Position numbers and translations under genes: made by a program. This document shows, piece after piece, positions 33,248 through 53,402 of a DNA stretch of 64,000 nt (the stretch's first letter is position 1; every line of letters begins with the position of its first letter). Source of the stretch: Actinomycetes bacterium. Lineage in GTDB: Bacteria; Actinomycetota; Thermoleophilia; Solirubrobacterales; Solirubrobacteraceae. Under the pieces are notes generated by a model that searched no databases, was not told where the DNA came from, and was given only the letters and a program-made list of their open reading frames with translations. The stretch is from assembly GCA_023404805.1 (NCBI GenBank), contig JAEYAL010000156.1, forward strand, positions 6,298 through 70,297, given 5' to 3'.

Positions 33248-34408
33248 TCAGCGGCTCACGATCGCCGTCGCCATGCGGCGGACGGTCTCGCGCAGCAGGG
33301 CGGGGCTCGTCGCGAAATTGAGGCGGACGTGGCCGGCGCCCGCGTCCGGGTCGTAGTTGCTGCCTGCCGCGAGCGCCACGTCGCCCTGCGTGAGGAGGAA
33401 GTCGGCCGCCTCGCCCGGCAGCGCATAGGCCCGCAGGTCGAGCCACGCGAGGTAGGTGGCCTGAGGCGGCGACCAGCGCGCAGCCGGGAGATGCTCGGCG
33501 AGGAGCAGGCCCAGCTCGTCGCGGTTGGCCGCCAGCTGCGCGAGCACCGCGTCCAGCCAGTCGTCGCCGCTGGTGAAGGCCGCCTCGGACGCGGTCACGC
33601 CGAGGAGGCCTGCGTGGGCGCCGATCGCTGGCAAGCCCCGGACGACGGCGTCGGCCTCGGGTGAGGCCGTCACGATCAGCGCCGCCTTGAGCCCCGCGAG
33701 GTTGAACGCCTTCGACGCCGAGGTGAGGACCACGCCACGCCGCCGGGCCGCGTCGGACACCTCATGCCAGGCGACGTGCCGGGCGCCCGGCAACACGAGC
33801 GGCGCATGGATCTCGTCGCTCAGCACCCACGCCTCGTGGAAGTCCGCGAGCTCGGCGACCGCCTCGAGCTCGGCGCGCGGGAGCACGCGGCCCGTCGGAT
33901 TGTGGGGACTTGCAAGCACGATCACACGAGCGCCCGCGCGCAGACGCGCGTCGAGCGCGGTGAGGTCGAGCGAGCCGCTGGCCAGGAGCGGAACGGCCAC
34001 CGGGCGCAGCCCGATCGCGGTGGGCGCGCTCCAGAACGGGGGGTAGGCGGGGCTGGCGAACACCACTTCGCCGCCCGGCCCGGCGAGGGAACGGGCCAGC
34101 TCCGTGAGCGCCACCATCACGTCAGGCGCCAGCGCCATGCGCGCCGGGTCCGGCGCCCAGTCCAGTCGCCGCTGTGCGAAGCGGGCGAACGCGTCAAAGA
34201 GCGAAGCGGGGGCCCTGAGCGGATAACCGAAGTCGTGTCGCTCGACCGCCGTTCTCAGCACTCCGGTCACGGCCTCTGCCACCGGGAAGTCCATCTCGGC
34301 GACCGTGGAGGCGAGGACGTGCGGCGAGTGCTGGCTCCACTTCTCGGAGCGGCGCGCGGCGAGCTCGGAGAGCGGCGCCACAGTGAGGTCGATAGTGCGC
34401 GCAGACAC
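33248..34408 (-). CDS. PLP-dependent C-S lyase / aminotransferase, MalY-PatB type
   Basis: The GTG at 34408 gives VSARTIDL.... EKWSQH...VAEMDFP, SPHNPTGRV and the SASKAFNLAGLK PLP-lysine motif are present. Confidence 0.8.
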   Translation of the reverse strand: MSARTIDLTVAPLSELAARRSEKWSQHSPHVLASTVAEMDFPVAEAVTGVLRTAVERHDFGYPLRAPASLFDAFARFAQRRLDWAPDPARMALAPDVMVALTELARSLAGPGGEVVFASPAYPPFWSAPTAIGLRPVAVPLLASGSLDLTALDARLRAGARVIVLASPHNPTGRVLPRAELEAVAELADFHEAWVLSDEIHAPLVLPGARHVAWHEVSDAARRRGVVLTSASKAFNLAGLKAALIVTASPEADAVVRGLPAIGAHAGLLGVTASEAAFTSGDDWLDAVLAQLAANRDELGLLLAEHLPAARWSPPQATYLAWLDLRAYALPGEAADFLLTQGDVALAAGSNYDPDAGAGHVRLNFATSPALLRETVRRMATAIVSR

Positions 34409-34672
34409 ACCGCGGAGCCTACGGGGGGACGGGTACCCACGCTGGTGGTACGGGCCGTTTGGGGCGGTTCTACGTCGTTCCTCCCCGATTTTCCTCAAAG
34501 GCCGGGGTGTTTTAGGAGTTTTTGCCCGTGGGATGTCTGGAAACACCGCAGCGCACCGCATTTCAGAAGTGGACAACTCGTTCCGTGGGCAGTCCAGCAG
34601 ACCTAGCGTTCGTGGCGCACCGAACACCCGCTCCGCAGCCCGCGGTGCCGCCGATCTCGCTGCTCTCACGAC

Positions 34673-36166
34673 ATGCCCACACCGGATCTCCTCCTTCGCG
34701 TCTCCGACCACGCCCGGCGCGCTCCGAGCCGCCCAGCGCTCTTCTTCCGCGGTGCCTGGACAACGTACGCGGACCTCGCGGCCGCAACGTCGCGGGCGGC
34801 CGACGCCCTCTTCCGGAGCGGCCTGCGCCGCGACGAGCAGCTCGTGCTCCTGGCCCCCAAGTCGCCGGACGCGGTGGCGCTGCTGCTAGCGGCGTGGGAC
34901 GCCGGGTATCAGGTGCTCGTGCCGTCCCCCGCGCTCGGAGAGCAGGCGCTCGCAGCGCTTGCCGAGCACACCGGGGCCGGCGCGATCGCCCGGCTCGGTG
35001 ACGGCGGCCTCCTCGCGCTCGACGTCGAGCATCTCGGCCAATCGGCTGCTGGCCACGACGGGCCGCCCGCGTGGAACGCGGACCTCCTGCTCACCACGTC
35101 TGGGAGCACGGGCGTCCCGAAGGTCGTCCCGATCGACCGCCGCGGCGCTGATCTGTTCTTCGCCTGGGCCGCTGCCGAAGCAGGGATCGGGGCGGATGCG
35201 CGCGTGGTCAGCTACGCGCCGCTCAACTTCGACGTGTCGCTGCTCGACGTCTGGGCAACCCTGTCGCGCGGCGGCGCGGCCATCTTGGTGGACGCGGAGG
35301 CGGCCACCGATGGCGCCGCGCTTGCCGACGTGCTGACCGTGACCGGGGCGACGGTCGCCCAGGCCGTGCCGCTCGCCTTCCGGCTGATCGCCGGCCACGC
35401 GCAAGCGCCGCTGCTCGACCTCGAGCGCATCCTGCTCACCGGAGACGTCACGCCGCCCGACCTCGCCGCTCAGCTTTCGGGGATCGCCCCGCGCGCCCGG
35501 ATCCACAACGTCTACGGCTCCACCGAGACGAACGACTCGACCTGGCACGAAGTATCAGCCGCGGAGCTCGCCAGCGGACAACCGCTCGCGATCGGGCGTC
35601 CGCTGACCGGCGCAGACGCGCGGCTCGTGGACCTCGACGGCCAGCTGGTCGACGGCGCCGGGGAGGGGGAGCTGTGGACGTCGACCCCGTTCCAGGCACG
35701 GGGCTACCTCGACCGGGCTGCGACGGAGGCCGCGTTCATCCCCGCGGCGCTCGGCACGGGCCGCACCTTCTACCGGACCGGCGACCTCGCGACCCGCGCT
35801 GACGACGGGTTGCTCCGCCTGGCCGGCCGCCTCGACCACCAGGTCAAGGTCAGCGGCGTCCGGACCAACCTCGCCGCCGTCGAGGCCGTGCTCCGCGACG
35901 CCGACGGCGTCGCCGATGCCGTCGTCGTCGCCCTGCCCGACGACGTCGCCGGACACCGGCTCCACGCCGTCGTCCAGCGGCGGCCGGACGCAGCGGTCAA
36001 CAGCCTTCTCCTGCGGAGCCACGCGGCGCCGCGCCTTCCTCGCACCGCAATCCCGCGTGCGTACTCCATCGCCGACGAACCGCTTCCGCGCACCGCTACG
36101 GGAAAAGTCGACCGGCAGGCGGTCACGCGCGCCATCACCAGCACCCAGAGCCATGTCACGACTTAG
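34673..36166 (+). CDS. stand-alone amino-acid adenylation enzyme (ANL superfamily, NRPS A-domain / DltA-like)
   Basis: The core motifs occur in order: LLLTTSGSTGVPKVV (A3), FDVS (A4), NVYGSTET (A5), GELW (A6), YRTGDL (A7), GRLDHQVKVSGVR (A8) and PRTATGKVDR (A10). Confidence 0.9.
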   Translation: MPTPDLLLRVSDHARRAPSRPALFFRGAWTTYADLAAATSRAADALFRSGLRRDEQLVLLAPKSPDAVALLLAAWDAGYQVLVPSPALGEQALAALAEHTGAGAIARLGDGGLLALDVEHLGQSAAGHDGPPAWNADLLLTTSGSTGVPKVVPIDRRGADLFFAWAAAEAGIGADARVVSYAPLNFDVSLLDVWATLSRGGAAILVDAEAATDGAALADVLTVTGATVAQAVPLAFRLIAGHAQAPLLDLERILLTGDVTPPDLAAQLSGIAPRARIHNVYGSTETNDSTWHEVSAAELASGQPLAIGRPLTGADARLVDLDGQLVDGAGEGELWTSTPFQARGYLDRAATEAAFIPAALGTGRTFYRTGDLATRADDGLLRLAGRLDHQVKVSGVRTNLAAVEAVLRDADGVADAVVVALPDDVAGHRLHAVVQRRPDAAVNSLLLRSHAAPRLPRTAIPRAYSIADEPLPRTATGKVDRQAVTRAITSTQSHVTT

Positions 36167-36407
36167 CGCGATCAAGGACTTGATCGTCACGAACTTCGCC
36201 CCCGACATCGTCGCGGACGACCTGCCCGACGACTACGAGCTGCTCGCCAACGGCGTCGTCGACAGCCTGGGCGTGGTCAAGCTCGTCGGCTTGCTCGAGC
36301 AGCGCTTCGCCCTCGACCTCGACATCGCCGACCTGACGCCGGACGCGTTCCGCTCGGCCCAAGCGATCGACAGCTTCATCGACGTCCTCGCGCCAGCGGC
36401 CGCCTGA
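36153..36407 (+). CDS. acyl/peptidyl carrier protein
   Basis: The ATG at 36153 overlaps the A-enzyme gene by 14 nt. The 84-aa protein has GVVDSLGVVKLVGLLE, the phosphopantetheine Ser in a DSL motif. Confidence 0.8.
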   Translation: MSRLSAIKDLIVTNFAPDIVADDLPDDYELLANGVVDSLGVVKLVGLLEQRFALDLDIADLTPDAFRSAQAIDSFIDVLAPAAA

Positions 36408-36515
36408 CACCCGCCCGGGCCCGCAGACCACCCCGAACACCACCACCCCGCCCGCTTCACGCACCAACCGCGCTTCGGCGCATTCACCAACCGCAACACG
36501 AGCGTTACCGACACC

Positions 36516-36890
36516 ATGATCGTACGGACGAAACACAGCACCCACGGAGTGGACTGGGGCAACGGGCGGAGCTTCCGGCTCCTCGTCGACCAGGACGGAT
36601 TGGGATTCACCCTCGCCCACACGCACGTGTCGGCGGGAACCGAGTCCAAGCTGCAGTACCGCCGCCACCTCGAGGCGTGCTACTGCATCGACGGGCGCGG
36701 AGAGATCGTCACCGAGGACGGCGTCGCACATCCGATCGAGCCGGGAGTCCTGTACGCGCTCGACGCGCACGATGCGCACACGCTGCGGGCCAGCCCAGAG
36801 GGCGATCTCGAGCTGATCAGCGTCTTCAATCCTCCGCTCACCGGCCAGGAGCGCCACGAGCTCTCCGCCGACGGCTACTCCCAGTACTGA
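36516..36890 (+). CDS. EctC-type cupin (solitary L-ectoine synthase homolog)
   Basis: MIVR..., W.N.RSFRLL..DG.GF, AGTES, HLEACYCIDGRGEI, PIEPGVLYALDAHDAHTLRA and VFNPPLTGQERH run collinear with canonical EctC over the full 124 aa. Confidence 0.85.
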   Translation: MIVRTKHSTHGVDWGNGRSFRLLVDQDGLGFTLAHTHVSAGTESKLQYRRHLEACYCIDGRGEIVTEDGVAHPIEPGVLYALDAHDAHTLRASPEGDLELISVFNPPLTGQERHELSADGYSQY

Positions 36891-36905
36891 AGGGCCCGCG
36901 GGACC

Positions 36906-38132
36906 ATGACCCTCACCCGACCTCTTGCCGCCGCGCCCGTCGAGCCCACGCTCGACGGGGCGGCGGCCCCGCCGCCGCTCACTGAGCTCGCGGCCTGGGC
37001 GCAGCGCCTCGGCGAAGTCGGCGAGCGGCGGCGGCCGCACGTCGGCGCAGACGATGCCGCCGGACGCTTCCCGGCGCAGGCCTTTGCGGAGGTCGCGGCG
37101 ACGGGTCTGTTCGCGCTGCCCTTCACGGATGACCGGCGCCGGTCCGACACGTCGATCCCGGCGCTGCTCGCGGCGATCGAGGAGCTCGCCTACACGAGCG
37201 ACGACGCCGGGCTGGCGTTCGCGGTCGCGACACAGCTGGCCAGCGCGATCATCCCGCTGGCGCGCTTCGGCGCGCCTGCCCTGCGTGAGGAGCTCGCCGG
37301 CGCGCTCGCTGACGGGACGCTCGTGGGTGCGCACGCGATCACCGAGCCTGGCGCCGGGTCCGACACGTCGGCGATCACGACAGTGGCGCGCCCCGATGGC
37401 GACGGCCATCTCCTCGTCTCGGGGGAGAAGGCGTTCGTCTCCAACGGCCCTGTCGCCGACCTGATCGTGGTCTACGCGCAGGTCGGCGAGCCCGGCGCGT
37501 CGGGTGGCCTCACCGCGCTGGCCGTCGATGCGGACGCACCTGGCGTGAAGCCGGGCGCCGCGCTCAGCACGCTCGGCCTCCGCACGAGCCCGCTGGGCAC
37601 GCTGAGCCTCGACGGGGTTCGCGTTCCGCGCGGCCGCGTGGTCGGCCAAGTCGGCGCAGGGCCGTGGCTACTGTCGCACGTGATGGCCCGTGAGATCCTC
37701 TTCATCGCGGCCGGCCACGTCGGCTTGCTGCGCCGCCGCTACGAGCGGCTGGTAGACCGGGCACGGACGCGGCACCAGGGCGGCGTGCCGATCGGCAGCC
37801 ATCAGGCGGTCGCCCACGCCGTCGCCGACGTGAAGCTCTCGTTGGACACCGTGCGCCTCTGGCTCGATCACGCCGCCACGGTGCTGGTGTCAGGCGCCGA
37901 TGCGAGCGCGGAGATCGCGTCGCTCAAGATCGTCGCCTCGGAGGCTGCCGTGAGCTCGGCGCGGACCGCGGTGCAGGTGTTCGGCGGCGACGGCTTCCTC
38001 ACCGGTACCGAGATCGAGCGCGGGTTGCGCGACGCCGCCGCGTCGACGATCTACTCGGGTACGAACGAGATCCAGCGCAACAAGATCGCGGCGCTCGCCG
38101 GGATCACGACACCAGCAAGGGGTGCATGGTGA
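36906..38132 (+). CDS. acyl-CoA dehydrogenase-fold flavoenzyme (possibly acting on a carrier-protein-bound substrate)
   Basis: GAHAITEPGAGSD, GEKAFVSNGPVAD, QVFGGDGF and IYSGTNEIQRN are present. The canonical YEG catalytic Glu is replaced by Ser. Confidence 0.85.
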   Translation: MTLTRPLAAAPVEPTLDGAAAPPPLTELAAWAQRLGEVGERRRPHVGADDAAGRFPAQAFAEVAATGLFALPFTDDRRRSDTSIPALLAAIEELAYTSDDAGLAFAVATQLASAIIPLARFGAPALREELAGALADGTLVGAHAITEPGAGSDTSAITTVARPDGDGHLLVSGEKAFVSNGPVADLIVVYAQVGEPGASGGLTALAVDADAPGVKPGAALSTLGLRTSPLGTLSLDGVRVPRGRVVGQVGAGPWLLSHVMAREILFIAAGHVGLLRRRYERLVDRARTRHQGGVPIGSHQAVAHAVADVKLSLDTVRLWLDHAATVLVSGADASAEIASLKIVASEAAVSSARTAVQVFGGDGFLTGTEIERGLRDAAASTIYSGTNEIQRNKIAALAGITTPARGAW

Positions 38133-38809
38133 CCCGTTCGTCCACGTCCGGTCCGCGATCGGCGCAGGTGCCCGCGAGGTACCTCGCCGCGACCGACCAC
38201 CTCGACTTCCGCCACCCGGCGGTGGCGGCCTTTGTCGAACGCGAAACCGCCGACGCCGCCGACGAGCGCGAGGCGGCCGTGCGGCTTTACTACGCCGTGC
38301 GCGACGGGCTCGACTACGACGTCTTCGGGCAGGACCTGTCGTCCGGCGGGGTGCGCGCCAGCGCGATCCTCGAGCGCGGGCAGGGGTTCTGCCTCCACAA
38401 GTCGATCCTCTACGCCGCCGCGGTGCGCGCGGTCGGGGTGCCAAGCCGGCTCAAGGTGTCGGAGGTGCGGAACCACCTCAGCTCGCCGCGGCTGCGCACG
38501 CTCGTCGGGGGCGACCTCTTCGTGCACTGGCTCACCGAAGTCCACCTCGGGGGCCGCTGGGTCAAGGCGACCCCGGTGTTCAACAAGCTGCTGTGCCGCC
38601 TGTACGGCATCGAGCCGCTCGAGTTCGACGGCGTGCACGACGCATCGGCGCACCCGTTCAAGGACGGCGCCGAGATGCGGTTCCTCACCGACCACGGCAC
38701 GTACGCCGATCTCGATTACGGCCACCTCATCGGCGTGATGCGGCAGCGGCACCCGCGGATGTTCGAACTTGGCCTGTGCACCCCGCGAAGCGTGGCCGTG
38801 GCGGCATGA
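38126..38809 (+). CDS. transglutaminase-like cysteine-protease-fold protein
   Basis: GQGFCLHKSILYAAAVRAVGVPSRL is the nucleophile Cys motif and HWLTEVHLGGRWV is the His motif. The start overlaps the ACAD stop (ATGGTGA). Confidence 0.7.
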   Translation: MVTRSSTSGPRSAQVPARYLAATDHLDFRHPAVAAFVERETADAADEREAAVRLYYAVRDGLDYDVFGQDLSSGGVRASAILERGQGFCLHKSILYAAAVRAVGVPSRLKVSEVRNHLSSPRLRTLVGGDLFVHWLTEVHLGGRWVKATPVFNKLLCRLYGIEPLEFDGVHDASAHPFKDGAEMRFLTDHGTYADLDYGHLIGVMRQRHPRMFELGLCTPRSVAVAA

Positions 38810-39468
38810 CCGCGCGTGCCGCACCCGAGCCGGCGGAGGGCGAGGCGCCGCTGACGCTTGATGTGTTCTTCGACTACGTGTGCCCGTACTGCCTGATCGT
38901 GGAGGACGCGGTCGAGCAGGTGGCCGAGCGCCGGCAGCTCGCCGTCCGCTGGCTGCCGTTCGAGCTGCGGCCGTATCCGAGCGCCACGCTGCGCCCGGAA
39001 GATCCGTACCTCCCGGCGGTCTGGCGCGACAGCGTGTATCCACGAGCCGCCGCCGCCGCGGGCGTCCCGATCTCGTTGCCGACCACGTCGCCGCAGCCTT
39101 GGTCGCACGCCGCGTTCGAGGGCCGGATCCACGCGGCCAGCCACGGCGTGGAGCGCGCGTGGGACCGCGCGGTGCTGCGGGCGTTCTTCCAGGAGGACCG
39201 CGACATCGGCGACCTCGCCGTGCTCGCCGCGATCGGGGAGGCGGTCGGACTCGATCCGGCGCAGGTGCGCGAGGCGCTCCAGGAGCGCCGCTACGAAGGA
39301 GCGCACCAGGCTGCCCTCCGCGAGGGCCGCGCCGCCCACATCTCGGCGGTGCCGACGCTGCGGCTCGGGCGCCACTCGTTCGCAGGGGCGCCCGACGAGG
39401 CCCGCCTCGATCATTTCGTCGGGCTCGTGCTCGACGAACGCTCCGCGAGCGCGGGGCCCGCGGCATGA
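38806..39468 (+). CDS. DsbA-family thioredoxin-fold protein (FrnE / 2-hydroxychromene-2-carboxylate isomerase-like)
   Basis: The ATG at 38806 overlaps the upstream stop (ATGA). LDVFFDYVCPYCLI carries the CPYC motif, and ISAVPTL is near the C-terminus. Confidence 0.75.
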   Translation: MTARAAPEPAEGEAPLTLDVFFDYVCPYCLIVEDAVEQVAERRQLAVRWLPFELRPYPSATLRPEDPYLPAVWRDSVYPRAAAAAGVPISLPTTSPQPWSHAAFEGRIHAASHGVERAWDRAVLRAFFQEDRDIGDLAVLAAIGEAVGLDPAQVREALQERRYEGAHQAALREGRAAHISAVPTLRLGRHSFAGAPDEARLDHFVGLVLDERSASAGPAA

Positions 39469-39989
39469 GCGCGTCGCCCGGCATCGATGACGTCGCCCTG
39501 CAGGCGCTCGTCGCCCAGGCGGTCGACCTTTCGACCGCCGAGGTGGCTCGGGGCGGCATCCCGTTCGCGGCGCTGGTGGTCGACCCGCTCAGCGGCGAGG
39601 TGCTCGGCGAAGGCGTCAACCGGGTTGCCGAGCAGCACGACGCGCTCGCGCACGCGGAGATCGTCGCCTTGCAGGACGCCGCCCGGCGCCGGGGCGCCTA
39701 CGCCCTGCCCGGCTCGCTGCTGATCGCCTCCGGCGAGCCCTGCGGCCTGTGCTATCACGCGGCGCTGCAGTTCCGGGTCGGCCACGTCGTCTACGCGGCC
39801 AGCGCCGATGACGCGGCGCGCTACGGCTTCGACTACCGCGGCAGTTACAGCCTGTTCCGGTCGGCGCCCCGCCAGTGGTGGCCGGGCGGTGTCCGCGCGG
39901 TCGCCGTCGACGGCGCGCTGGCGCCGTTCGACCTGTTCGCAAACCACGACGCCGCTCGTCTAGAGCGCCAGGAGAAGAATCCAAGATGA
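39465..39989 (+). CDS. CDA-fold zinc deaminase (nucleoside/guanine/tRNA-adenosine deaminase-like)
   Basis: The ATG at 39465 overlaps the upstream stop (ATGA). HAEIVALQ and GEPCGLCYHA are the zinc-ligand motifs. Confidence 0.75.
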   Translation: MSASPGIDDVALQALVAQAVDLSTAEVARGGIPFAALVVDPLSGEVLGEGVNRVAEQHDALAHAEIVALQDAARRRGAYALPGSLLIASGEPCGLCYHAALQFRVGHVVYAASADDAARYGFDYRGSYSLFRSAPRQWWPGGVRAVAVDGALAPFDLFANHDAARLERQEKNPR

Positions 39990-40789
39990 CGAACGGCCTT
40001 CGCACGCGGAACGACGGGTGGGACGCACGGTTCCGGCTCGGCGTGATCGTCCCGCACGCCGATGTCGGCCCCGAGGCCGAGCTGCAGGCGATGGCACCGC
40101 CTGACGTGTCGATCCACGCGGGCCGCGTGTACTTCGGCGCGATGCGCGCCGGGGGCAAGATGGACCCGAAGATCCCGCACGACCCGGTGCTGGCGTTCGT
40201 GGCGCCGGGCGCCATCGACGAGACGCTGGAGCTGCTCGCGGCGGCGCCGCTCGACGCGATCGGGCTCGCGTTCACGAGTTCGGCCTACAAGCTCGGCCCG
40301 GCCGGAGAGGACGACCTCGTCGACCGGCTCGCCGAGCGCGCCCGCGGTATCCCGCTGCTCTCTGGCGGCCGTGCTGCGGCGGAAGGGCTGCGGTCGCTCG
40401 GCGTGCACCGCTTGGCGCTGATCCACCCGCCGTGGTTCGACGACGCGCTCGACGAGCTCGGCGCCCGCTACTTCGAGGCTCAGGGGTTTGAGGTGGTGCA
40501 CCACGCGCCGGCCGCCATTCCCAGCGACCAGTCGCTCATCACGGCCGACGCGGTGTTCGAGCATGTGCGCGACGTCGCCCGCGACGCCGACGGCGTGTTC
40601 ATCGCGGGCAACGGCTTCCGCGCCGTCGGCGCGATCGCCCGGCTGGAGCACGCGCTCGGGATCCCGGTGCTCTCGGCCAACCAGGCGCTGCTCTGGCGGG
40701 CGCTGGCGGGCCACGTCTCCGGCCGCGGCGCGTCCCGGACGGTGCACGGCTTCGGCCGGCTGTTCGACGCTGAGGCGTCGGCCTTCTGA
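39986..40789 (+). CDS. Asp/Glu/hydantoin racemase superfamily protein (maleate isomerase / arylmalonate decarboxylase-like), cysteine-free
   Basis: The ATG at 39986 overlaps the upstream stop (ATGA). LGVIVPHAD..., LAFTSSAY, LIHPPW, VFIAGNGFRAV and IPVLSANQALLW run collinear with maleate isomerases. The 267-aa protein contains no Cys. Confidence 0.65.
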   Translation: MTNGLRTRNDGWDARFRLGVIVPHADVGPEAELQAMAPPDVSIHAGRVYFGAMRAGGKMDPKIPHDPVLAFVAPGAIDETLELLAAAPLDAIGLAFTSSAYKLGPAGEDDLVDRLAERARGIPLLSGGRAAAEGLRSLGVHRLALIHPPWFDDALDELGARYFEAQGFEVVHHAPAAIPSDQSLITADAVFEHVRDVARDADGVFIAGNGFRAVGAIARLEHALGIPVLSANQALLWRALAGHVSGRGASRTVHGFGRLFDAEASAF

Positions 40790-40905: not shown

Positions 40906-42174
40906 TCAAGCGCCCGTCACGCGCACCGAGATCTCACGCGAGGCCAGGCGCGCGAACCAGCGGTCGCGCACGTTGCGCTCCAGGTGCGGCTGTCCCGTCT
41001 GGCTCAGGTCTTCGGCCAGCCGCCGGTCGTTCCCGGTCGAATCCAGGCGCCAGCGGGTGAGGGCATCTTGGAAGCGCTGGGCGCACGTATCGTCCGGGCC
41101 CTGCGGGCGGTGCAACGCAAGCCGGCTCACACTTGAGCAGGTACGCGGCGCGCGGGAGACTGCTCCGATCTTCTCGAGCGCCGCGAGCCCAGCCTGGATC
41201 GTCTTGCGGTTGTCGGCTTCGGGGTCGAGCTGGAGCCGCGGAGAGACGTCGCGCGTGAGCGCAGCGACGGACACGTCGACGCTGCCCGTCTGCCCGCCGG
41301 CCTGCTCGGCGAGCACGAGCCAGATCTGCGTGCTGCGCACCACGCGGCGCATCTGCGGCCGCGAGTACTTGTCGCCGCAGAACAGCAGCGCCGCGATCTC
41401 CGCCTCGCCGAGCAGCAGCGGCTGCCCTCGCCGGGACTCGGCCGGTAGCGCGCTGGCGGGGACGCCACCGCGCGGGCGCAGGCAGTCGCTGACCGTCGAC
41501 CGGCCGACGCGCGCTGCCAGCGCGGCCGGAGGGGCGCGGAAGATCGGGTCCGGGGCGCCAGGCGCCGGATCGGCGAACTCGGCCCGGAGCCGATCGCTGG
41601 CTGCCAGGCCCCGCCAGCCCCGCGCGCCGAAGCCGTGGTCGAACAGCCGGATACGCGCATCGGTGAGCAGCCGCTGAAGCTGGGTGCCGCCCGGGTCCTC
41701 CGGCGAGATGCCGTCGTAGGCGAGCACCCCTGAGCGCAGCTGCGCCGGTGACGGCGCGGGCGCGCGCGGCAGCGAGAGCTCGCGCCCTTGCCGCGCGAGG
41801 GCGCCGATGCCGATGAGCGTGTCGAGGGCCTCGTCGTAGGCGGGGACGTGCGACTCGTGTGAACGCAGCACGCGGCCGTAGCGTTCGCGCACATCGGGCA
41901 TCTCGCCGGGGAGCTGAGCGTGCACGCCGCCCGCCCGGGCGACGATCAGCGCGTGGAGCAGCGCGACCGCCAACGCGTGGTTGACCGGCACGCTGCGCCC
42001 GAGCGCGAGCGCGAACACGTCGAACGGCGCGACGAGCACCGGCCACGCGCTCCCTGGGTCGGCGGCCGGCGGCGCGCCGCGCCGCGCGTCGACCAGCCCC
42101 GCGGGCTCGTAGTCGAGCTCGTCGGCGGCCAGATAGCCGCGCCACGCGAACTCCTCTCGGACCAGTGTGCGCAT
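40906..42174 (-). CDS. hypothetical protein (ORFan, 422 aa)
   Basis: The internal ATG at 42174 gives MRTLVREEFAWRGYL.... The composition is protein-like (F, Y, W, I, D and E all present), unlike the Arg/Ala/Pro-rich alternative frames. I recognise no motif. Confidence 0.5.
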   Translation of the reverse strand: MRTLVREEFAWRGYLAADELDYEPAGLVDARRGAPPAADPGSAWPVLVAPFDVFALALGRSVPVNHALAVALLHALIVARAGGVHAQLPGEMPDVRERYGRVLRSHESHVPAYDEALDTLIGIGALARQGRELSLPRAPAPSPAQLRSGVLAYDGISPEDPGGTQLQRLLTDARIRLFDHGFGARGWRGLAASDRLRAEFADPAPGAPDPIFRAPPAALAARVGRSTVSDCLRPRGGVPASALPAESRRGQPLLLGEAEIAALLFCGDKYSRPQMRRVVRSTQIWLVLAEQAGGQTGSVDVSVAALTRDVSPRLQLDPEADNRKTIQAGLAALEKIGAVSRAPRTCSSVSRLALHRPQGPDDTCAQRFQDALTRWRLDSTGNDRRLAEDLSQTGQPHLERNVRDRWFARLASREISVRVTGA

Positions 42175-42215
42175 TCGAGCTCCCCCAGCTCCGCAGTGGT
42201 GCAGCCGGCCGGCCG

Positions 42216-42839
42216 TCAGCCGCGCCCGACGAGTTCGAGCGCAAGCGCGGTGGGCACGCCGCCGTTGATGTTCGCCACGTCCTGCGGGCACGCCGAGACG
42301 ACGACGAGCAGGTCGTCGAGGGCCTGCAAAGTCACGCTGGCTCCCGGCGCGGTGTCGCTGGGCAGCCAGGTCAGCACGCCATCGACCGCCACCGGGATGC
42401 GCATGAAGAGGTTGACGGGCTGCGGCGCGACGGCGGGCACCGGCGCGCCCGCGGCGCGCAGCGCCTGTGCCAGGTTCTCGACGCACGAGGCATGGCCGGG
42501 CGCAGCGCCGAGCTGGGCGTAGCGGACGGGATCACAAGCCGGGATGAGCATGTCGTGGGCGCCCGGCGAGTCGTCGGCGACGAGCTCGAGCAGCGGCCGC
42601 CGCCGCGTGGAATAGAACCGCTCGCCGACCGCCGGAAACAACCGGTCGGTCCGCGCCCGAGTGTGCCCGGCGCTCACATGCTCGTCGTGCCCGGGCTCCA
42701 CGAAGGCGAAGAGGTCGCCGACCTGGCCGCCCTCGACGTCGACCACGCGGAAGGCATCGCCGGCGCGCACGCGCACGGCCCGCGCCGTGCGCGCGGGGAT
42801 CGGCACGACCGCCGGCCGGCTCGTCGGGCGCGTGCTCAC
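42216..42839 (-). CDS. DUF1989 (urea-carboxylase-associated family) protein
   Basis: The GTG at 42839 overlaps the upstream stop (GTGA). VVDVEGGQVGDLFAF, GAHDMLIPACD, PVNLFM and VVVSACPQD match my recollection of DUF1989. Confidence 0.65.
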   Translation of the reverse strand: MSTRPTSRPAVVPIPARTARAVRVRAGDAFRVVDVEGGQVGDLFAFVEPGHDEHVSAGHTRARTDRLFPAVGERFYSTRRRPLLELVADDSPGAHDMLIPACDPVRYAQLGAAPGHASCVENLAQALRAAGAPVPAVAPQPVNLFMRIPVAVDGVLTWLPSDTAPGASVTLQALDDLLVVVSACPQDVANINGGVPTALALELVGRG

Positions 42840-44662
42840 CGGGCTTCGACCGGCGCCCACTCGCCGCCGTCCCGCTTCCAGCCGTCGTACCCCGTATCGA
42901 GGTGCGCCACGTCGCGGTAGCCGAGCTCCCGCAGCGACTTGGCTGCCAGCGCCGAACGCCAGCCGCCCGCGCAGTAGACCACCGTGCGCTGTGCCGGATC
43001 GAGGTAGTCGCGGTGGTACGGCGACCGCGGGTCGGCCCAGAACTCGACGAACCCGCGCGGCACATGCCGCGCCTGCGGGATCGCGCCGTCGCGGACCCGC
43101 TCGCGCTCGTCGCGCACGTCGATCACGAGCACGTCGCCAGCCGCCAGCTCCGCCGCCAGATCCGGCGTCGACAACGCGGGGATCTCGGCGCGGGCCGCGT
43201 CCACGAGACCGCGCACGCCGTGCTCAGACACCCGGGGACGCTCGCGGTGCTCACGCTCGTAGAGCCGCACGACCGCGCGCACCGCCGCGTTGACGGAGTT
43301 GAACACCGGCACGCCGCCACGCCGCAAGATCCGCGCCGGCTCGGTGTCGTCGTACCACGTGTGCACGACCACTGGGACCGGCCCCGCGGCGGCCTGCACG
43401 ATCGCGTGCGCCGCCTCGAGCTCATCGGCGACGAAGTCCTCGGACTGCGCCTTGTAGCCGCCGAACATGCCGCTGAACACGACGGCGTCGACCTCGCCGG
43501 ACTCTGCGACCACGCGGATCGCGGCCGCATAATCGCTGAGCTCGAAGTGCGACCCGCCCGTGATATCGACCGGGTTGCGGCGCGCGGAGGCGCCCGCCGT
43601 CGCCTCGACCAGCGCGGCGTCGACGGCGTCGGAGAGCCGAGGCACCTCGAGCCCGTGGTCGAGGACCGCGCCTGTCCCGAGCACCGCCTGACCGCCGCCG
43701 TCGGCGACCACGCCGACGCGCGGCCCCGCCGGCGTGGCGGTCGCGCGGAGCGTCTCGGCCGCCTCGATCAGATCGGCTGGCGTCGACACGTGCAGGATGC
43801 CAGCGGCGCGAGCCGCCGAGCGCAGCTCGAGCTGGGAAGCGAGCACGGATCCGGTGTGGGCGTGGGCGGCACGGGTCGTCGCCACACCGTCCGGCGGGGT
43901 GAGGAACACGACGGGTTTGCCTGCCGCCGCGGCGTAGCCAGCCGCGTCGATGAGCGCGGGCAGGTCGCGCACCTCCTCGAGGTATGCGCCGATCACATGC
44001 GTCGACGGGTCGTCGGCGAGCGCGCGGAGCAGCTCTGCGGCGGTCACGTCGGCCTGGTTGCCGAACGAAACGAGCCGCGAGAACCCGAGGTCGGAGCGGC
44101 GTCCGAGGGTGACGAGCTCTGTGATCACCCCGCCGCTCTGCGAGATCACGCCCACGTGGCCGCCGCGTGGGTCGTCGAGCCAGGTCATGGCGTCAAGCTG
44201 GCTGTCGTCGACTCGGATGCCGTTGCAGTTCGGGCCGATCAACAGCGCGCCGGCGTCGCGCACCTTCTCCGCGATCCGCGCCTCGAGCTCAGCGCCGAGC
44301 GGGCCCGACTCGCGGAACCCGACCGTGATCACGACGATCGCCTTCGCGCCCGCCGCCAGGGCGGCGTCGACGGTCTCCTCGACGCTGGCCTGCGGCACGA
44401 CCACGATCACGAGGTCCGGCGCCTCGGGCAGCTCGGCGAGGCTGCGGAAGGCTGGCTGGCCCAGGATCTCGCCGCCGCTGCGCGTGACGAGCCGGACGGT
44501 GCGCCGCCCCGCCCCCTGCAGCAGGTTCCGGGCCACGAGGTGGCCCCACTTCGTCGGGTTCGCCGATGCGCCGACGAGCGCGACCACGCGAGGGTCGAAC
44601 AGCGCGTCCCAGTCCCGTTGCGGCGTGGGCGGCGCGGGGGCCGGGGTCTGCGAAAGGGTCAT
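42836..44662 (-). CDS. ADP-forming acyl-CoA synthetase alpha-type (CoA-binding plus CoA-ligase domains) fused to a C-terminal rhodanese domain
   Basis: The internal ATG is at 44662. VALVGASANPTKWG is the CoA-binding motif. GPNCNGI and AAHAHTGSV (phosphohistidine-type motif) are present. The C-terminal ~110 aa has DVLVIDVRDERE...VVYCAGGWRS, a rhodanese active-site loop. Confidence 0.75.
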   Translation of the reverse strand: MTLSQTPAPAPPTPQRDWDALFDPRVVALVGASANPTKWGHLVARNLLQGAGRRTVRLVTRSGGEILGQPAFRSLAELPEAPDLVIVVVPQASVEETVDAALAAGAKAIVVITVGFRESGPLGAELEARIAEKVRDAGALLIGPNCNGIRVDDSQLDAMTWLDDPRGGHVGVISQSGGVITELVTLGRRSDLGFSRLVSFGNQADVTAAELLRALADDPSTHVIGAYLEEVRDLPALIDAAGYAAAAGKPVVFLTPPDGVATTRAAHAHTGSVLASQLELRSAARAAGILHVSTPADLIEAAETLRATATPAGPRVGVVADGGGQAVLGTGAVLDHGLEVPRLSDAVDAALVEATAGASARRNPVDITGGSHFELSDYAAAIRVVAESGEVDAVVFSGMFGGYKAQSEDFVADELEAAHAIVQAAAGPVPVVVHTWYDDTEPARILRRGGVPVFNSVNAAVRAVVRLYEREHRERPRVSEHGVRGLVDAARAEIPALSTPDLAAELAAGDVLVIDVRDERERVRDGAIPQARHVPRGFVEFWADPRSPYHRDYLDPAQRTVVYCAGGWRSALAAKSLRELGYRDVAHLDTGYDGWKRDGGEWAPVEAR

Positions 44663-44691
44663 CGTCGTCCTCCGTGGGCGGATGTGTGGTG

Positions 44692-45894
44692 CTAGAGCCG
44701 GACGAGCCCGTGCGGACGCGGCGTGAGCCGCTCCGCGCCGTCGCCGGTGATCACATAGATGTCTTCGATCTGGTGGCCGCCGAGGCCGCGCACGTAGTAG
44801 GGCGTCTCGAAGCAGACGACCATCCCCGGCTCGAGCGGCCGCAGCTCGGTCGGTGCGAGGAACGGCCCTTGCTCGTCGAGACCGAGGCCGGCGGCGTGGC
44901 CGACGTGGCCGCGCGTATACGTCGGAAGGCCCGCGTCGCGGACGGCGGCCTGGGTCGCGTAGAACACCTCGCTCGCGGGCGTCCCCGCTCGCAGCAGTGG
45001 AACGCCCGCCGCGTGGCCGGCCGCGAGCGCCTCGAGGATCCGCTCCGACCACGGGTGGGGCTCGCCGATCGCGTAGGAGCGCCCGGCGTCGCTGCCGTAG
45101 CCGTGGAGCTCTGCGCCGTAGTCCACCCACAGGGTCTGCCCGTCCTCGATCCGCCGTCCGTCGACCTGCGTCGCGGGCGCCACGTCGCCGCCAGCGGTGA
45201 CGTCGGCCCGCAGCGCGGTGAGGCCTGCGAACTCAGGCGTCTGAAGCGCGGCGCCGTGCACCGCCGCGGCGTACCGCGTCCGTAGCTCCTGCACCGTGCG
45301 CCCGCGCGGGTCCACGCCGAGCACGGCATCCAGGCCGGCGTCGGCCACGCGCGTCGCGCGTCGCAGCAGGTCGATTTCAGCGGGGTGCTTGACGGCGCGC
45401 AGGTCGTAGAAGGCGCCGCTGGCGTCCACGAGCTCGACCTCCGGCGCGGCGCCGGCGAGCGCTGACGCCTCTGCGGCGGTCAGCGCGTCCAGCTCGACGC
45501 CGATCCGGCCTCGCGAGAGGCCGTGGCGCCGCAGCGCCGCCGCTACGACGTCGGCGCTCACGGCGAGGTCGAGCTGGACCGGCTTGGGCCGCACTGCGGT
45601 GCGGCCGGCCTGCAGCGCTTCGAGGTCGTCGATCTCGATCCACGTCGGCACCTCGAACACCTCGGTGCCGTCGGCGCGCGTCTGGGCGGCAGCGCGCGCC
45701 GCCTCCCATGCGCCGACGACGAGGGTGCGCTCACCGCTCGGTTCGAGGACGGCTGCGCCGCCGCTCACTCCGGCGTGCCACGGCCGGAAGCCCGTGAGGT
45801 ACTGCACGTTGTCGAGCGTGAGCGCGAGGAGCCCGTCGAGCGACTCGCGCTCGAGGACCGCTGCAGCTCGGGCCGGATCGAGGAACGACGTCAC
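44692..45894 (-). CDS. M24-family metallohydrolase with a creatinase/prolidase-type N-domain (Xaa-Pro peptidase / creatinase / ectoine hydrolase-like)
   Basis: The GTG at 45894 overlaps the upstream stop (GTGA). KHPAEIDLLRRA is present. Metal-ligand regions are WVDYGAELHGYGSDAGRSY, GHVGHAAG, VCFETP and HQIEDIY. Confidence 0.8.
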   Translation of the reverse strand: MTSFLDPARAAAVLERESLDGLLALTLDNVQYLTGFRPWHAGVSGGAAVLEPSGERTLVVGAWEAARAAAQTRADGTEVFEVPTWIEIDDLEALQAGRTAVRPKPVQLDLAVSADVVAAALRRHGLSRGRIGVELDALTAAEASALAGAAPEVELVDASGAFYDLRAVKHPAEIDLLRRATRVADAGLDAVLGVDPRGRTVQELRTRYAAAVHGAALQTPEFAGLTALRADVTAGGDVAPATQVDGRRIEDGQTLWVDYGAELHGYGSDAGRSYAIGEPHPWSERILEALAAGHAAGVPLLRAGTPASEVFYATQAAVRDAGLPTYTRGHVGHAAGLGLDEQGPFLAPTELRPLEPGMVVCFETPYYVRGLGGHQIEDIYVITGDGAERLTPRPHGLVRL

Positions 45895-49207: not shown

Positions 49208-50100
49208 GCGTCGCTCGGCGCTGTCGCGCCGTCGCGTCCGAGGCGCGCCTGCGCGTACCCATCGGCCGCGAGGTTGACGCCGACGGTGAGGGCCCCGATC
49301 GCGATGACTGGGAGGAGCACGCCCCACGGCTGCACGGCGAGCGCCAGCCGGTTCTCGTTGATCATCAGGCCCCAGTCGGCAGCGGGCGGCTGCAGGCCGA
49401 GCCCGAGGAAGCCGAGCGAGGCAACGAGCGCGATCGAGACGGTCAGCCGCAGTCCGACCTCCACGAGCAGCTGGCCGCTCACGTTGGGGAGCAGCTCGTG
49501 CGTCGCGATCCGCCGTCGCGATTCCCCCGCCGCTTCGGCGGCCAGCACGAAGTCGCGCGCGGCCACCTCGAGCGCGGCGCCGCGGATCACGCGGGCCACG
49601 CGAGGCGCGTTGGCGAGCGCGACAAGCACCGTGATCAGCCACAGCTGAGGGCCGAGCGCGGAGACGCCGAGGAGCACGAGGACGAGCTGCGGGATCGCGA
49701 GGAGCCCGTCGTTGGCGCGCATGAGCGGCTCGTCGATCCGGCGTGGCGCGACGGCGCAGAGAAGTCCGAGCAGGGCTCCAGCCGCGACGCCGAGCAGCGT
49801 GGCGAGCGTCGCGACGAGCAGGATGGTCCGGCCGCCGGACAGGAAGCGGCTGAGCACGTCGCGGCCGAGCGCATCGGTGCCGAACGGCGCGCCGTCGATC
49901 GGCCCGGAATTGGGGACTCCGACGAACGCGCCCGGCGCGTGCGGCGCCAGCGCCGGGCCGATGATGGCCAGCCCGACGACCGCCAGCGCCAGCGCGGCGC
50001 CGGTGCGCACCCGTCCGGTCCGCCGGAGCGGCGATTTGAGTACGCCCGTGTCGGCGCGGCGCTCGGCGGCGGGCTTGCGGAGCGGCGGGAGCGCGGTCAT
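49204..50100 (-). CDS. ABC transporter permease (DppC-like)
   Basis: The internal ATG is at 50100. PFGTDALGRDVLSR is present, with a six-TM pattern and the EAA-like loop AAEAAGESRRRI. Confidence 0.85.
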   Translation of the reverse strand: MTALPPLRKPAAERRADTGVLKSPLRRTGRVRTGAALALAVVGLAIIGPALAPHAPGAFVGVPNSGPIDGAPFGTDALGRDVLSRFLSGGRTILLVATLATLLGVAAGALLGLLCAVAPRRIDEPLMRANDGLLAIPQLVLVLLGVSALGPQLWLITVLVALANAPRVARVIRGAALEVAARDFVLAAEAAGESRRRIATHELLPNVSGQLLVEVGLRLTVSIALVASLGFLGLGLQPPAADWGLMINENRLALAVQPWGVLLPVIAIGALTVGVNLAADGYAQARLGRDGATAPSDA

Positions 50101-51113: not shown

Positions 51114-51130
51114 GTTTGATGGCGACGATG

Positions 51131-51190
51131 GCATACGATCAAGCAACCATCAACCGAAAAGTTGCCTTATCGGTCAATAGTTGCTCAGGT
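51131..51190. promoter_or_regulatory. AT-richer nested inverted repeats upstream of the ABC/catabolic operon
   Basis: AGCAAC (51142-51147) pairs with GTTGCT (51180-51185). The inner repeat is CAAC-cgaaaa-GTTG (51151-51164). The region sits in a locally GC-poor tract 18-75 nt upstream of the permease start. Confidence 0.35.
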
Positions 51191-51324
51191 TTCCCCGTCT
51201 GGGCCAGCGCGATCGGAAGGGCGGCGAGGCACGCCGGACCCGGAGCGGTCCGCGGGTGCGGCGCAACGGCGAGGGGCACGGGTGCACGAGGCGCCGGCGT
51301 CCGCCGACAGCCAGGTGCCGGCGC

Positions 51325-51894: not shown

Positions 51895-52041
51895 TGCGCG
51901 CGCAGTCTAGCTAGATCGAAGGTCCGTGGTCGAAGCCCGCCGGGCTCGTTCGTGCATCCGCCATCGCGGGCTTCGGCCACGGCCGCCCGGGCCGGGCGGC
52001 GATCGTGAGGTATGACGCCGCTCGTTGGCGCGCGCGTCACG

Positions 52042-52515
52042 TCAGGCTGCGGAATCTCCCGCTGGACCGGGGCCTTCGGCGGCCTCCTGCGGACCGTCGG
52101 CGAGCTTGAGCCAGACGACGCCCCCGATGATGACGGCGAGCCAGAACGCCCGCGCGGCGGTGAGCGACTCATCGAACAGCACGGGGCCGAGGAGCGCCGC
52201 GCCAACGGCCCCGATCCCGGCCCACACCGCGTAGCCGATCCCGACGTCGATCGAGCGCAGCGCGATGCTCAGTGCCAGCAGCGTGAGCAAGAAGAACACG
52301 CCGGCGGCGATCGACCAGCCCGGGATCGTGAACCCTTCACTCCCGCCGACGCTGAGCGCGTAGCCGACCTCGAACGCTCCCGCGAGGAACAGGACGAGCC
52401 ACGCGCGGCCGTCGGTCTGGTGCGCCGACGCGTCCGGGGACGCGGGCCGCTCGTGCGGCTCATGGGCTCGGAGGGCAGGCCGCGCCGCTGAGGTGCTGGA
52501 ACTCGTGGTGCTCAT
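52042..52515 (-). CDS. SMR-family small multidrug resistance protein with an N-terminal extension (paired subunit)
   Basis: The internal ATG at 52515 overlaps the upstream stop. WLVLFLAGAFEVGYALS carries the membrane Glu, and GIGYAVWAGIGAVGAALLG is present. Confidence 0.75.
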   Translation of the reverse strand: MSTTSSSTSAARPALRAHEPHERPASPDASAHQTDGRAWLVLFLAGAFEVGYALSVGGSEGFTIPGWSIAAGVFFLLTLLALSIALRSIDVGIGYAVWAGIGAVGAALLGPVLFDESLTAARAFWLAVIIGGVVWLKLADGPQEAAEGPGPAGDSAA

Positions 52516-52835
52516 CACGCGGCTCCGCTGAGCTGGAGGCCGACGACACCTGCCACGACGATGCCGATGCCAAGCAGCTGCCTGCGGGACGGGCGCTGCC
52601 CGAGCGAGACCGCGCCGACAATCACGATGCCGACGCCGGCGATCGAGGTCCACAGCGCGTAGCCGACTCCCACGTCGAAGGTGAGCAGCGCTTGACTCAA
52701 GAAGAACGTGGCGATCGCGCCGCTGATCAGCGTCGCCGCCGTCCACTTGGCGTTTCTGAAGCCTTCCGCCTTGCTGGCGGAGATCGCCACCGTGATCTCG
52801 AAGATCACCGCGATCCCTAGATAGACCCAACTCAT
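52515..52835 (-). CDS. SMR-family small multidrug resistance protein (paired subunit)
   Basis: The internal ATG at 52835 gives MSWVYLGIAVIFEITVAIS (conserved Glu). GVGYALWTSIAGVGIVIVG is present. The protein is 106 aa. Confidence 0.85.
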   Translation of the reverse strand: MSWVYLGIAVIFEITVAISASKAEGFRNAKWTAATLISGAIATFFLSQALLTFDVGVGYALWTSIAGVGIVIVGAVSLGQRPSRRQLLGIGIVVAGVVGLQLSGAA

Positions 52836-52955: not shown

Positions 52956-53402
52956 TCAGGCGGCCGTGAGCAGGTCGCTGATCTGGGCGACGTCCCTGGC
53001 GAGCTGGCCGGCGTCAGCGTCGGGAGCCTGCGTCGCGACCTCGCGCAGCAGCTCGCTGACGCGCGCGGCATACGGGCTGCGGACCGCGTCGACGAGCGCC
53101 CGTCCTTCGTCCGTGAGCACCGCGTAGACGCCGCGCGCATCGTCGGGGCAGAGGTCGCGCCGCGTCAGGCCTTTCGCCTCCAGCCGGCTGATCAGCCGGG
53201 TGACGGAGCTCTGGTTGAGTCCGATCTGCGCGGCGAGGTCGTTCACTCGCAATTCGCTGTCGGACGCATCAGCGAGCCGCACCAGTGCCCGGTAGTCCGT
53301 GAGTCCGACGCGATAGGCGTCGACCAGCCATTTGCCAAGGCTCGCGTCGACGGCCACCACGAACGCGGCGATCCGCGACCACGCAGCCCCCGGGTCGCTC
53401 AT
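52956..53402 (-). CDS. MarR-family transcriptional regulator
   Basis: The internal ATG is at 53402. LTDYRALVRLADASDSELRVNDLAAQIGLNQSSVTRLISRLEAKGLTRR is the winged helix-turn-helix. Confidence 0.85.
   Translation of the reverse strand: MSDPGAAWSRIAAFVVAVDASLGKWLVDAYRVGLTDYRALVRLADASDSELRVNDLAAQIGLNQSSVTRLISRLEAKGLTRRDLCPDDARGVYAVLTDEGRALVDAVRSPYAARVSELLREVATQAPDADAGQLARDVAQISDLLTAA

Follow-up and report, generated by a model that had tools for sequence, protein, structure and literature searches.

What does a solitary EctC-type (ectoine synthase-like) cupin do inside an eight-gene carrier-protein operon? The question is raised by a 64-kb stretch of actinobacterial DNA (contig JAEYAL010000156.1), here called the window, whose own coordinates we use throughout and whose G+C content is ~72%. 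It is of some general interest, as the role of orphan ectC genes has been listed as unresolved by ectoine researchers (PMC6344544, PMC5924519). An earlier annotation of this DNA, the sequence-only reading, found that no characterised pathway matched the operon. That claim did not hold: the five-gene core corresponds to the early showdomycin pathway, and a showdomycin-type cluster contains a homologue of each of the eight genes. We propose, with a probability of roughly two in three, that the operon is a sugar-less variant of the showdomycin type which would make and export a free aminopyrrole- or maleimide-type molecule.

The showdomycin (sdm) cluster comprises 16 genes in 12.2 kb. In its pathway SdmE cyclises L-glutamine to 2-amino-1-pyrroline-5-carboxylate (ADPC), SdmC activates ADPC and loads it onto the carrier protein SdmD, and oxidation and hydrolysis then give 2-amino-1H-pyrrole-5-carboxylate, to which SdmA adds ribose 5-phosphate and from which SdmB removes the phosphate; the last steps, decarboxylation, deamination and oxidoreduction, are described as "nonenzymatic" (PMC8724604). 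We recognised the signature of this cluster in a Curtobacterium locus (L007), where the same five-gene core found in the window is followed directly by a gene of the IndA/pseudouridine-5'-phosphate-glycosidase family and a HAD phosphatase gene. A search with an SdmA-like query then gave two further loci, L033 and L034; Streptomyces showdoensis was not among the 120 matches listed. L033, from Streptomyces sp. NPDC048659, holds 16 genes in 12,210 bp. Its first block, on one strand, encodes DUF6253, an Amdase-like (arylmalonate decarboxylase-like) protein, a TGase-like (transglutaminase-like) protein, an ACAD (acyl-CoA dehydrogenase-fold enzyme), an EctC-like protein, a carrier protein and an adenylation (A) enzyme. 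A MarR gene follows, and after it two SMR (small multidrug resistance) genes and genes for a CDA (cytidine deaminase-fold protein), a DsbA-like protein, an IndA-type glycosynthase, a HAD phosphatase, a major facilitator superfamily (MFS) transporter and a second Amdase-like protein. Each of the eight proteins of the window operon matches a protein of L033, at 43-60% identity. In L007 and L034, too, the cassette is contiguous with SdmA- and SdmB-like genes.

The same connection is visible in published cluster predictions, where antiSMASH tables score related Streptomyces regions "showdomycin 47%" (PMC10293955). The regions in question, in S. californicus and S. cavourensis, are labelled "butyrolactone, ectoine: showdomycin 47%" or 29%, which fits the architecture of one of our loci from an S. 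griseus-type strain (L031), so the MIBiG check suggested in the sequence-only reading would have returned a partial match. The cluster family has a MIBiG entry and its core chemistry has been described; the window shows a variant of it, sugar-less, in a single operon and with an exporter, and of this variant we found no description in the literature searched, most subscription papers lying outside the search.

Translation of the window gave nine intact genes, the eight of the operon and a divergent gene for a pyridoxal phosphate (PLP) enzyme, and an independent gene caller gave the same eight plus one on identical contigs in a public collection (Table 1). Between the A and carrier genes there is a 14-nt overlap, a shared ATGGTGA joins the ACAD gene to the TGase-like gene, and ATGA start-stop overlaps occur at 38806, 39465 and 39986. 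The coordinates, junctions and 264-bp divergent gap claimed in the sequence-only reading were all reproduced by the translation and the second gene caller, and its view of a single, translationally coupled carrier-protein operon agrees with the intact reading frames, the start-stop coupling and the conservation described below. The fold assignments of all nine proteins were confirmed by Pfam and NCBIfam.

Table 1. Position of the operon, its flanking genes and the exporter unit in the window.
Feature	Position	Strand	Remarks
PatB-family C-S lyase (PLP gene)	33248..34408	-	PatB-family 6e-78
Upstream region, presumed promoter-bearing	34409..34672	.	264 bp, divergent gap to PLP gene
Stand-alone adenylation enzyme (SdmC-like)	34673..36166	+	AMP-binding, TIGR01733
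84-aa carrier protein (SdmD-like)	36153..36407	+	PP-binding, DSL serine
EctC-type cupin (SdmE-like)	36516..36890	+	Ectoine_synth
ACAD-fold flavoenzyme	36906..38132	+	ACAD domains; L-prolyl-PCP dehydrogenase best NCBIfam match
TGase-like (transglutaminase-core) Cys enzyme	38126..38809	+	Transglut_core
DsbA/FrnE-like thioredoxin-fold protein, CPYC motif	38806..39468	+	DSBA
CDA-fold zinc deaminase, guanine-deaminase type	39465..39989	+	dCMP_cyt_deam_1
Amdase/EutA-like Asp/Glu-racemase-fold protein, type 1	39986..40789	+	Amdase
hyp422, 422-aa protein, convergent with operon	40906..42174	-	no family match; conserved position
SMR-family efflux subunit, half of pair	52042..52515	-	SugE below cut-off
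SMR-family efflux subunit, second half of pair	52515..52835	-	SugE below cut-off
MarR-family regulator heading SMR pair	52956..53402	-	identity to MarR of L031 and L033

The cupin is an EctC homologue (Ectoine_synth, E value 1e-35; 4e-29 against the ectoine synthase structure 5ONN) that keeps the metal (iron) ligands E53, Y80 and H88. The substrate-binding residues Trp21 and Asn38 of crystallised EctC are not retained in place: Asn38 corresponds to Ala34 and Trp21 aligns with Gly17, a Trp sitting three residues earlier, at position 14, in a WGNG motif. This motif and the loss of Asn38 are common to all EctC homologues of the cassette, including those of SdmA-carrying loci. The window protein is 60% identical to the EctC-like protein of L033, and its gene has the same place in the gene order in 22 related loci. 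Its neighbours are the A, carrier and ACAD genes, and the Pfam context contains neither a diaminobutyrate (DABA) acetyltransferase nor a DABA transaminase, in agreement with the earlier statement that no ectA or ectB lies beside the cupin. Conversion of glutamine to ADPC has also been proposed for a related EctC homologue, Athv28, whose deletion leaves no anthelvencin (PMC8627960). By homology we predict that the window cupin is a glutamine cyclodehydratase making ADPC. The earlier notion of an EctC-type cyclodehydratase working with thiotemplate activation is supported.

EctC-like genes of the WGNG type were also observed without the cassette. In Arenibacterium (L017:8901-13720) such a gene lies behind a LysR gene, together with genes for an amino-acid-binding protein, an ABC transporter and a glutaminase, a neighbourhood that fits glutamine as substrate, and in Enterovibrio (L024:8900-11644) one adjoins an Nramp transporter gene. 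These cassette-free enzymes may make or use ADPC on its own.

The stand-alone A enzyme (AMP-binding 9e-52, TIGR01733 6e-72) is 44% identical to the A protein of L033. We read its specificity code by hand from motif anchors as DVLQLTVDSK, and the pattern D[LV]LQ[VLI]T[VL]D[ST]K fits 17 of the 19 other cassette loci aligned, the two exceptions deviating at one position each (DLFQLTVDSK in L005 and DLLQITVNSK in L003). The SdmA/SdmB-carrying locus L007 falls within the pattern, with DVLQVTVDTK. A code that is nearly invariant across cassette loci, those with SdmA included, argues for one common substrate. Against structures in the PDB the enzyme matches L-proline-carrier ligases at 8e-37; its best match is the glycine module 2 of the linear gramicidin synthetase LgrA (1.7e-74, the next match being 6e-48), and the lower half of the pocket code of that module differs from that of the window enzyme. 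The window code has an Asp at position 330, which is presumably unlike proline codes. The carrier protein (PP-binding 3.9e-4) has the serine of the (D/N/S)SL motif, which is invariant in 19 homologues and reads DSL in the window. The hand-derived code matches the family and the carrier serine is kept, as in sdm-type cassettes. The A enzyme is predicted from these similarities to activate ADPC and load the carrier protein.

The ACAD is closest in NCBIfam to the L-prolyl-PCP (peptidyl carrier protein) dehydrogenases RedW and PigA (1e-71 and 3e-70), with scores of 242 and 237 bits that lie below the equivalog cut-offs of 650 and 500, and in the PDB to the prolyl-ACP (acyl carrier protein) dehydrogenase 4IRN (1e-53), of which it has the YSGT.EIQR motif as well as a conserved Glu in the MxxE segment. 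We predict that it oxidises carrier-bound ADPC to the aminopyrrole. The TGase-like gene follows it directly, as in the sdm-type cassette. Its product (Transglut_core 1.5e-15) gave no PDB sequence match and has no NCBIfam model. It belongs to a family of 4015 members at E<=1e-10, and C89 and H134 are invariant in 34 homologues. Foldseek searches with its AlphaFold2 model (pLDDT 91) matched TGase-like cysteine proteases and arylamine N-acyltransferases at low TM scores (0.35-0.49); both are thioester-using Cys enzymes. Release of the product by hydrolysis of the carrier thioester is the function predicted for it by homology. In Vibrio coralliilyticus (L029:10415-12274) a single 619-aa protein combines the ACAD and the TGase-like enzyme, a fusion that speaks for their acting one after the other on a carrier-bound substrate.

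When species-representative genomes were scanned with the EctC-like protein, 25 loci emerged, 13 of which have the order A, carrier, EctC-like, ACAD, usually with the TGase-like gene next, and context look-ups of further homologues added nine loci. A-carrier-EctC-ACAD occurs in 22 other loci, with a TGase gene detected in 19 of the 22, and the full set of eight genes in seven other loci from Actinomycetota, Alphaproteobacteria and Gammaproteobacteria. Recurrence on this scale means that the adjacency is not random, and the refuting condition named in the sequence-only reading, lack of conservation in related genomes, does not apply. The eight-gene set is found without a glycosynthase in six loci: a Rhodomicrobium metagenome-assembled genome (L003), Saccharothrix (L028), V. 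coralliilyticus (L029), the S. griseus-type strain (L031, in rearranged order), Patulibacter (L035) and a close relative of the window organism (L036). Among named relatives Patulibacter sp. comes nearest, at ~70% nucleotide identity, and L036 is collinear with the window at 74-77%.

The window belongs with these sugar-less loci, since tblastn (E 1e-3) with SdmA and SdmB of L033 gave no match in the 64 kb; the SdmA gene within the cluster and the adjoining SdmB gene that mark showdomycin producers proper are absent from it. Queries for DUF6253, the ACPS-type phosphopantetheinyl transferase (PPTase) and an old yellow enzyme (OYE) likewise found no homologue in the window by tblastn. The sequence-only reading had stated that the 64 kb contain no condensation (C) domain, thioesterase, PPTase or ect genes, and this stands uncontradicted for the part covered by Pfam (~26.5-46.9 kb) and for ten further large ORFs, which encode housekeeping or transport functions and no non-ribosomal peptide synthetase (NRPS) domains; for the PPTase, the ACPS-type query covered the whole 64 kb.

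The three remaining operon proteins have counterparts in L033. The DsbA-like protein (DSBA 5e-23; FrnE in the PDB, 2e-9) has a conserved DYVCP[YF]C motif and is 47% identical to its L033 homologue; a redox step or thiol protection would suit it. The CDA-like protein (dCMP_cyt_deam_1 7e-17; 52% identity to the L033 CDA) has Bacillus subtilis guanine deaminase as its best PDB match (4e-16) and conserves the HAE and SGEPCxxCY motifs. Guanine deaminases hydrolyse a ring amidine, and the CDA-like protein would probably carry out the hydrolytic deamination of a cyclic amidine or imine. The Amdase-like protein (Amdase 3.5e-15) also resembles EutA (8e-20), far below the cut-off at 71 versus 318 bits, and is closer to the first Amdase-like protein of L033 (53% identity) than to the second (29%). 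It contains no cysteine at all, and so does not have the catalytic Cys of the arylmalonate decarboxylase/Asp-Glu racemase superfamily; the AMDase catalytic positions G74 and C188 are Phe and Gly, and neither position is Cys in any of the seven homologues aligned. Our guess is that it acts in decarboxylation or tautomerisation.

We next consider where the cluster ends. The stretch marked out in the sequence-only reading takes in a divergently transcribed gene for a PatB/MalY-type lyase. No such lyase lies beside the cassette in any related locus, the two closest relatives included, and the nucleotide alignment with L036 begins at 34672, at the A gene, the 264-bp upstream region not being conserved there; the lyase is most likely a mere neighbour and probably not part of the unit. 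On the other side, the gene for hyp422 directly follows the operon in both L035 (67% nucleotide identity) and L036 (75%). Neither NCBIfam nor the sequences of the PDB contain a match to this possible cluster member, and the best it reached in Pfam was a non-significant E of 0.45, below cut-off. In L036 a SMR-SMR-MarR unit comes immediately after hyp422, whereas in the window ~9.9 kb (42174-52077) absent from L036 lie between the two. The gene order in the collinear L036 indicates that the MarR-SMR-SMR unit of the window belongs to the cluster, which the limits of 33248-40789 set in the sequence-only reading had missed. The two SMR proteins have SugE as best NCBIfam match, below cut-off (3.5e-18 for the one at 52042 and 7e-15 for the one at 52515), and are 65% and 70% identical, respectively, to SMR proteins of the L031 cluster. 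Paired SMR genes lie inside or beside the cluster in L028, L029, L030, L031, L033 and L036, and a MarR gene adjoins the cassette in L003, L028, L029, L031, L033 and L036; the window MarR is 45-48% identical to those of L031 and L033.

The 9.9-kb block encodes a DUF1989 protein, an ADP-forming CoA ligase with a rhodanese domain, a creatinase/M24 peptidase, an SBP_bac_5 protein and an oligopeptide-type ABC transporter. None of the other cassette loci examined by tblastn has this block, and L036 lacks it as well; in the Patulibacter locus L035 the ABC-transporter part is near the cassette, and a portion of the block adjoins the cassette in inverted orientation. Regulatory signals were few. A scan for the sigma-70 consensus found no promoter in the 264-bp upstream region, terminator-like sites in the window are no commoner than in shuffled sequences, and the regions upstream of the operon and of the MarR gene have a single 11-mer (CGGGCCGTTTG) and no palindrome in common, which gives no evidence for co-regulation of the two units. 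Rfam at gathering thresholds found two tRNAs and no riboswitch in the whole window. The tRNA genes are at 14297-14368 (+) and 53605-53678 (-), the latter just upstream of the MarR gene and beside a strong hairpin (53574-53601).

Taken with the published showdomycin work, homology and synteny suggest the following pathway, and we are fairly confident of the steps that would cyclise glutamine, load, oxidise and hydrolyse. The cupin would remove water from L-glutamine to give the cyclic amidine ADPC, the A enzyme would activate ADPC and load it onto the 84-aa carrier, the ACAD would remove two hydrogens to give carrier-bound 2-amino-1H-pyrrole-5-carboxylate, and the TGase-like Cys enzyme would hydrolyse the thioester and free the acid. 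Because neither the SdmA C-glycosynthase nor the SdmB phosphatase is present, the heterocycle would not be ribosylated, and free 2-aminopyrrole-5-carboxylate would be the branch point from the showdomycin route. The substrates of the CDA, DsbA-like and Amdase-like proteins may be the free aminopyrrole or products of its oxidation, the outcome being a maleimide-type or related small heterocycle; alternatively, the CDA and DsbA-like proteins may protect the producer from the product. The SugE-like SMR pair, under MarR control, would export a small product that is probably cationic or amidinium-like.

The three proteins correspond one to one with the three "spontaneous" steps of showdomycin formation, which suggests the formation of a maleimide-type product or protection from it. 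A hint in the same direction comes from L031 (10862-19790), which also carries genes for DUF6253, an ACPS-type PPTase, an AfsA butyrolactone synthase and, between the CDA and DsbA genes, an OYE-family (Oxidored_FMN) reductase. The OYE family includes N-ethylmaleimide reductase, and the reductase fits a maleimide-type electrophile. We tentatively put forward, as one possibility, that the MarR-SMR-SMR unit and the eight genes form a self-contained pathway that might secrete a reactive heterocycle, namely maleimide, its imine or a 2-aminopyrrole-derived amidinium, with the CDA-, DsbA- and Amdase-like proteins catalysing deamination, redox and decarboxylation. Among ideas considered before the showdomycin link was found, and dropped with it, were ectoine as the loaded substrate, a pyrimidine product, and ureido-amino-acid substrates leading to cyclic guanidines. 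The maleimycin cluster, which works by a LysW/RimK route, proved unrelated and was rejected as a relative (PMC12022981).

Several points weigh against the proposal of a sugar-less variant with its own exported product. Every enzyme function given here is assigned by homology, the specificity code was read off manually at motif anchors, and L033 is a stand-in for the S. showdoensis cluster, chosen on gene count, length and content. The view is of 64 kb, and the rest of the genome could encode a psuG/sdmA-type glycosynthase. The CDA, DsbA and SMR genes are also present in L033, so they are not specific to the sugar-less form and may serve resistance, and the Amdase-like protein lacks the cysteines of known family members, which leaves its decarboxylase role a guess. 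Finally, L035 has an Sfp-type PPTase gene beside the cluster and L031 has a PPTase gene too, and none was found in the window.

The location of a glycosynthase is the crux of one alternative, that the operon feeds a C-nucleoside, showdomycin or an analogue, with a PsuG-type (pseudouridine-5'-phosphate-glycosidase) enzyme and a phosphatase encoded elsewhere. The PsuG/IndA family is very common (7842 matches at E<=1e-20), the different arrangement of the cassette and the SdmA/B-like genes in L034 means that the modules can separate, and only 64 kb of the genome is in view. Yet SdmA and SdmB lie inside the cluster in all three glycoside-type loci, and six independent sugar-less loci from three bacterial classes have the same eight genes and no glycosynthase or phosphatase within ~10 kb, and we regard a C-nucleoside as unlikely. 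Slightly less likely still, in our estimate, is that the operon serves only to provide a building block, 2-aminopyrrole-5-carboxylate or ADPC, from which enzymes encoded elsewhere would assemble a larger metabolite. ADPC is used in this way in anthelvencin (PMC8627960), and the core is joined in other genomes to TrpD/TrpA/PRAI-like genes, to UbiD/UbiX with a monooxygenase, to PALP with an ATP-grasp gene, and to a P450 with a trp operon; near the window operon, however, there is no condensation, ATP-grasp or other ligase gene, and the eight genes with their own exporter pair look self-contained and recur unchanged across phyla.

That the pathway is truly undescribed, with chemistry unrelated to any characterised cluster, could be argued from the TGase-like protein without an NCBIfam model, from the lack of PDB sequence matches for it and for hyp422, and from the unassigned roles of the DsbA-, CDA- and Amdase-like proteins. 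We consider this very improbable given eight homologues in a showdomycin-type cluster, published core steps, and antiSMASH/MIBiG scores that already tie related regions to showdomycin. We give even less credence to an ectoine-related osmolyte system, in which a precursor would be imported, the EctC-like protein would convert it to ectoine and the EutA-like protein would take part in ectoine turnover. With 139 bits the cupin does clear the cut-off (128 bits) of the NCBIfam ectoine synthase subfamily model, EutA is the best NCBIfam match of the last gene, and a creatinase/M24 gene lies ~4 kb downstream of the operon; but ectA and ectB are not among the neighbours, Asn38 is replaced and the Trp shifted, the EutA score is far under its cut-off, the M24 gene sits in the block absent from L036, and carrier-protein chemistry has no place in ectoine metabolism. 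Equally hard to credit is a showdomycin cluster in decay, of which the loss of sdmA and sdmB has left a remnant that no longer makes anything useful: SdmA and SdmB are indeed missing and the exporter unit is split off by the 9.9-kb insertion, but the eight reading frames are intact with start-stop coupling, the catalytic motifs are kept, and distant phyla have retained the same sugar-less set. The C-nucleoside, building-block, ectoine and remnant explanations are each less well supported than the sugar-less showdomycin-type variant.

Related loci carry the core in other company. One variant, noted in L008 (8130-9987) and L009 (12349-13017) and also in L012, L013, L014 and L018, has a TrpD-like phosphoribosyl pyrophosphate (PRPP) transferase gene (PF00591) and a TrpA-like gene (PF00290) between the carrier and EctC genes, and a gene for a phosphoribosylanthranilate isomerase (PRAI/TrpF)-like protein after the TGase gene. 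It looks like anthranilate-style N-ribosylation chemistry on an aminopyrrole, for which we know of no described pathway. In L030 (12348-16394) and L012 (13618-15590) the core is accompanied by SMR genes, a styrene-monooxygenase-like flavoenzyme gene and a UbiD/UbiX decarboxylase pair, which suggests the enzymatic decarboxylation of a heteroaromatic acid. In Kibdelosporangium persicum (L032:10815-20648) the cassette is followed by genes for a 955-aa FAD_binding_3/Pyridoxal_deC fusion and a P450, and by a complete trpE-G-D-C-B-A set. The V. coralliilyticus cluster adjoins an IucA/IucC siderophore locus and a BCCT transporter gene.

The base-forming module of showdomycin is thus widespread, in a cassette joined to at least five different tailoring sets and with a TGase-like partner that has ~4000 relatives. 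If the assignments made here are correct, a large share of orphan ectC genes would gain a chemical role in the cyclisation of glutamine toward an aminopyrrole, and the CDA-, DsbA- and Amdase-like proteins would be candidate enzymes for steps now thought to be non-enzymatic. With the sugar-less set present in S. griseus-type strains and in V. coralliilyticus, a pathogen of corals, one may ask whether free maleimide-type electrophiles or small amidines are secreted by bacteria.

With canonical EctC the window protein shares the cupin fold, the Glu/Tyr/His iron ligands and the equivalents of Arg25, Thr40 and Tyr52; it differs in having Ala in place of Asn38, which in EctC contacts the substrate carboxylate, Trp21 shifted to the WGNG motif, and Ser in place of Cys104. 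Whereas ectABC operons have ectA and ectB, the window cupin is part of a carrier-protein pathway. Athv28 of anthelvencin biosynthesis is, like it, an EctC-family enzyme outside an ect operon, with a proposed role in turning glutamine into ADPC for secondary metabolism. In anthelvencin, however, ADPC is joined to pyrrolamide units by NRPS parts, and the window has instead a dedicated carrier and an oxidation step, with no C domains. The A/PCP/ACAD triads of PigA, RedW and AnaB likewise use a stand-alone A enzyme, a carrier and an ACAD to oxidise a carrier-bound five-membered cyclic imino acid. Those triads act on proline, whereas the window substrate would, by homology, be the amidine ADPC, for which one two-electron oxidation would be enough to give an aromatic ring.

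The closest system is showdomycin itself (sdm of S. showdoensis, MIBiG BGC0001778, GenBank LAQS00000000), of which the window has, as judged via L033, the glutamine cyclase, A enzyme, carrier, oxidase and hydrolase. The window also shares with the L033 cluster the DsbA-, CDA- and Amdase-like proteins, the MarR regulator and the paired SMR genes. L033 has in addition SdmA, SdmB, the MFS transporter, the second Amdase-like protein and DUF6253, all five absent from the window, and unlike L033 the window has all eight genes in one operon, with the exporter unit 11 kb off. Showdomycin is a C-nucleoside, whereas the product expected from the window would be the free heterocycle.

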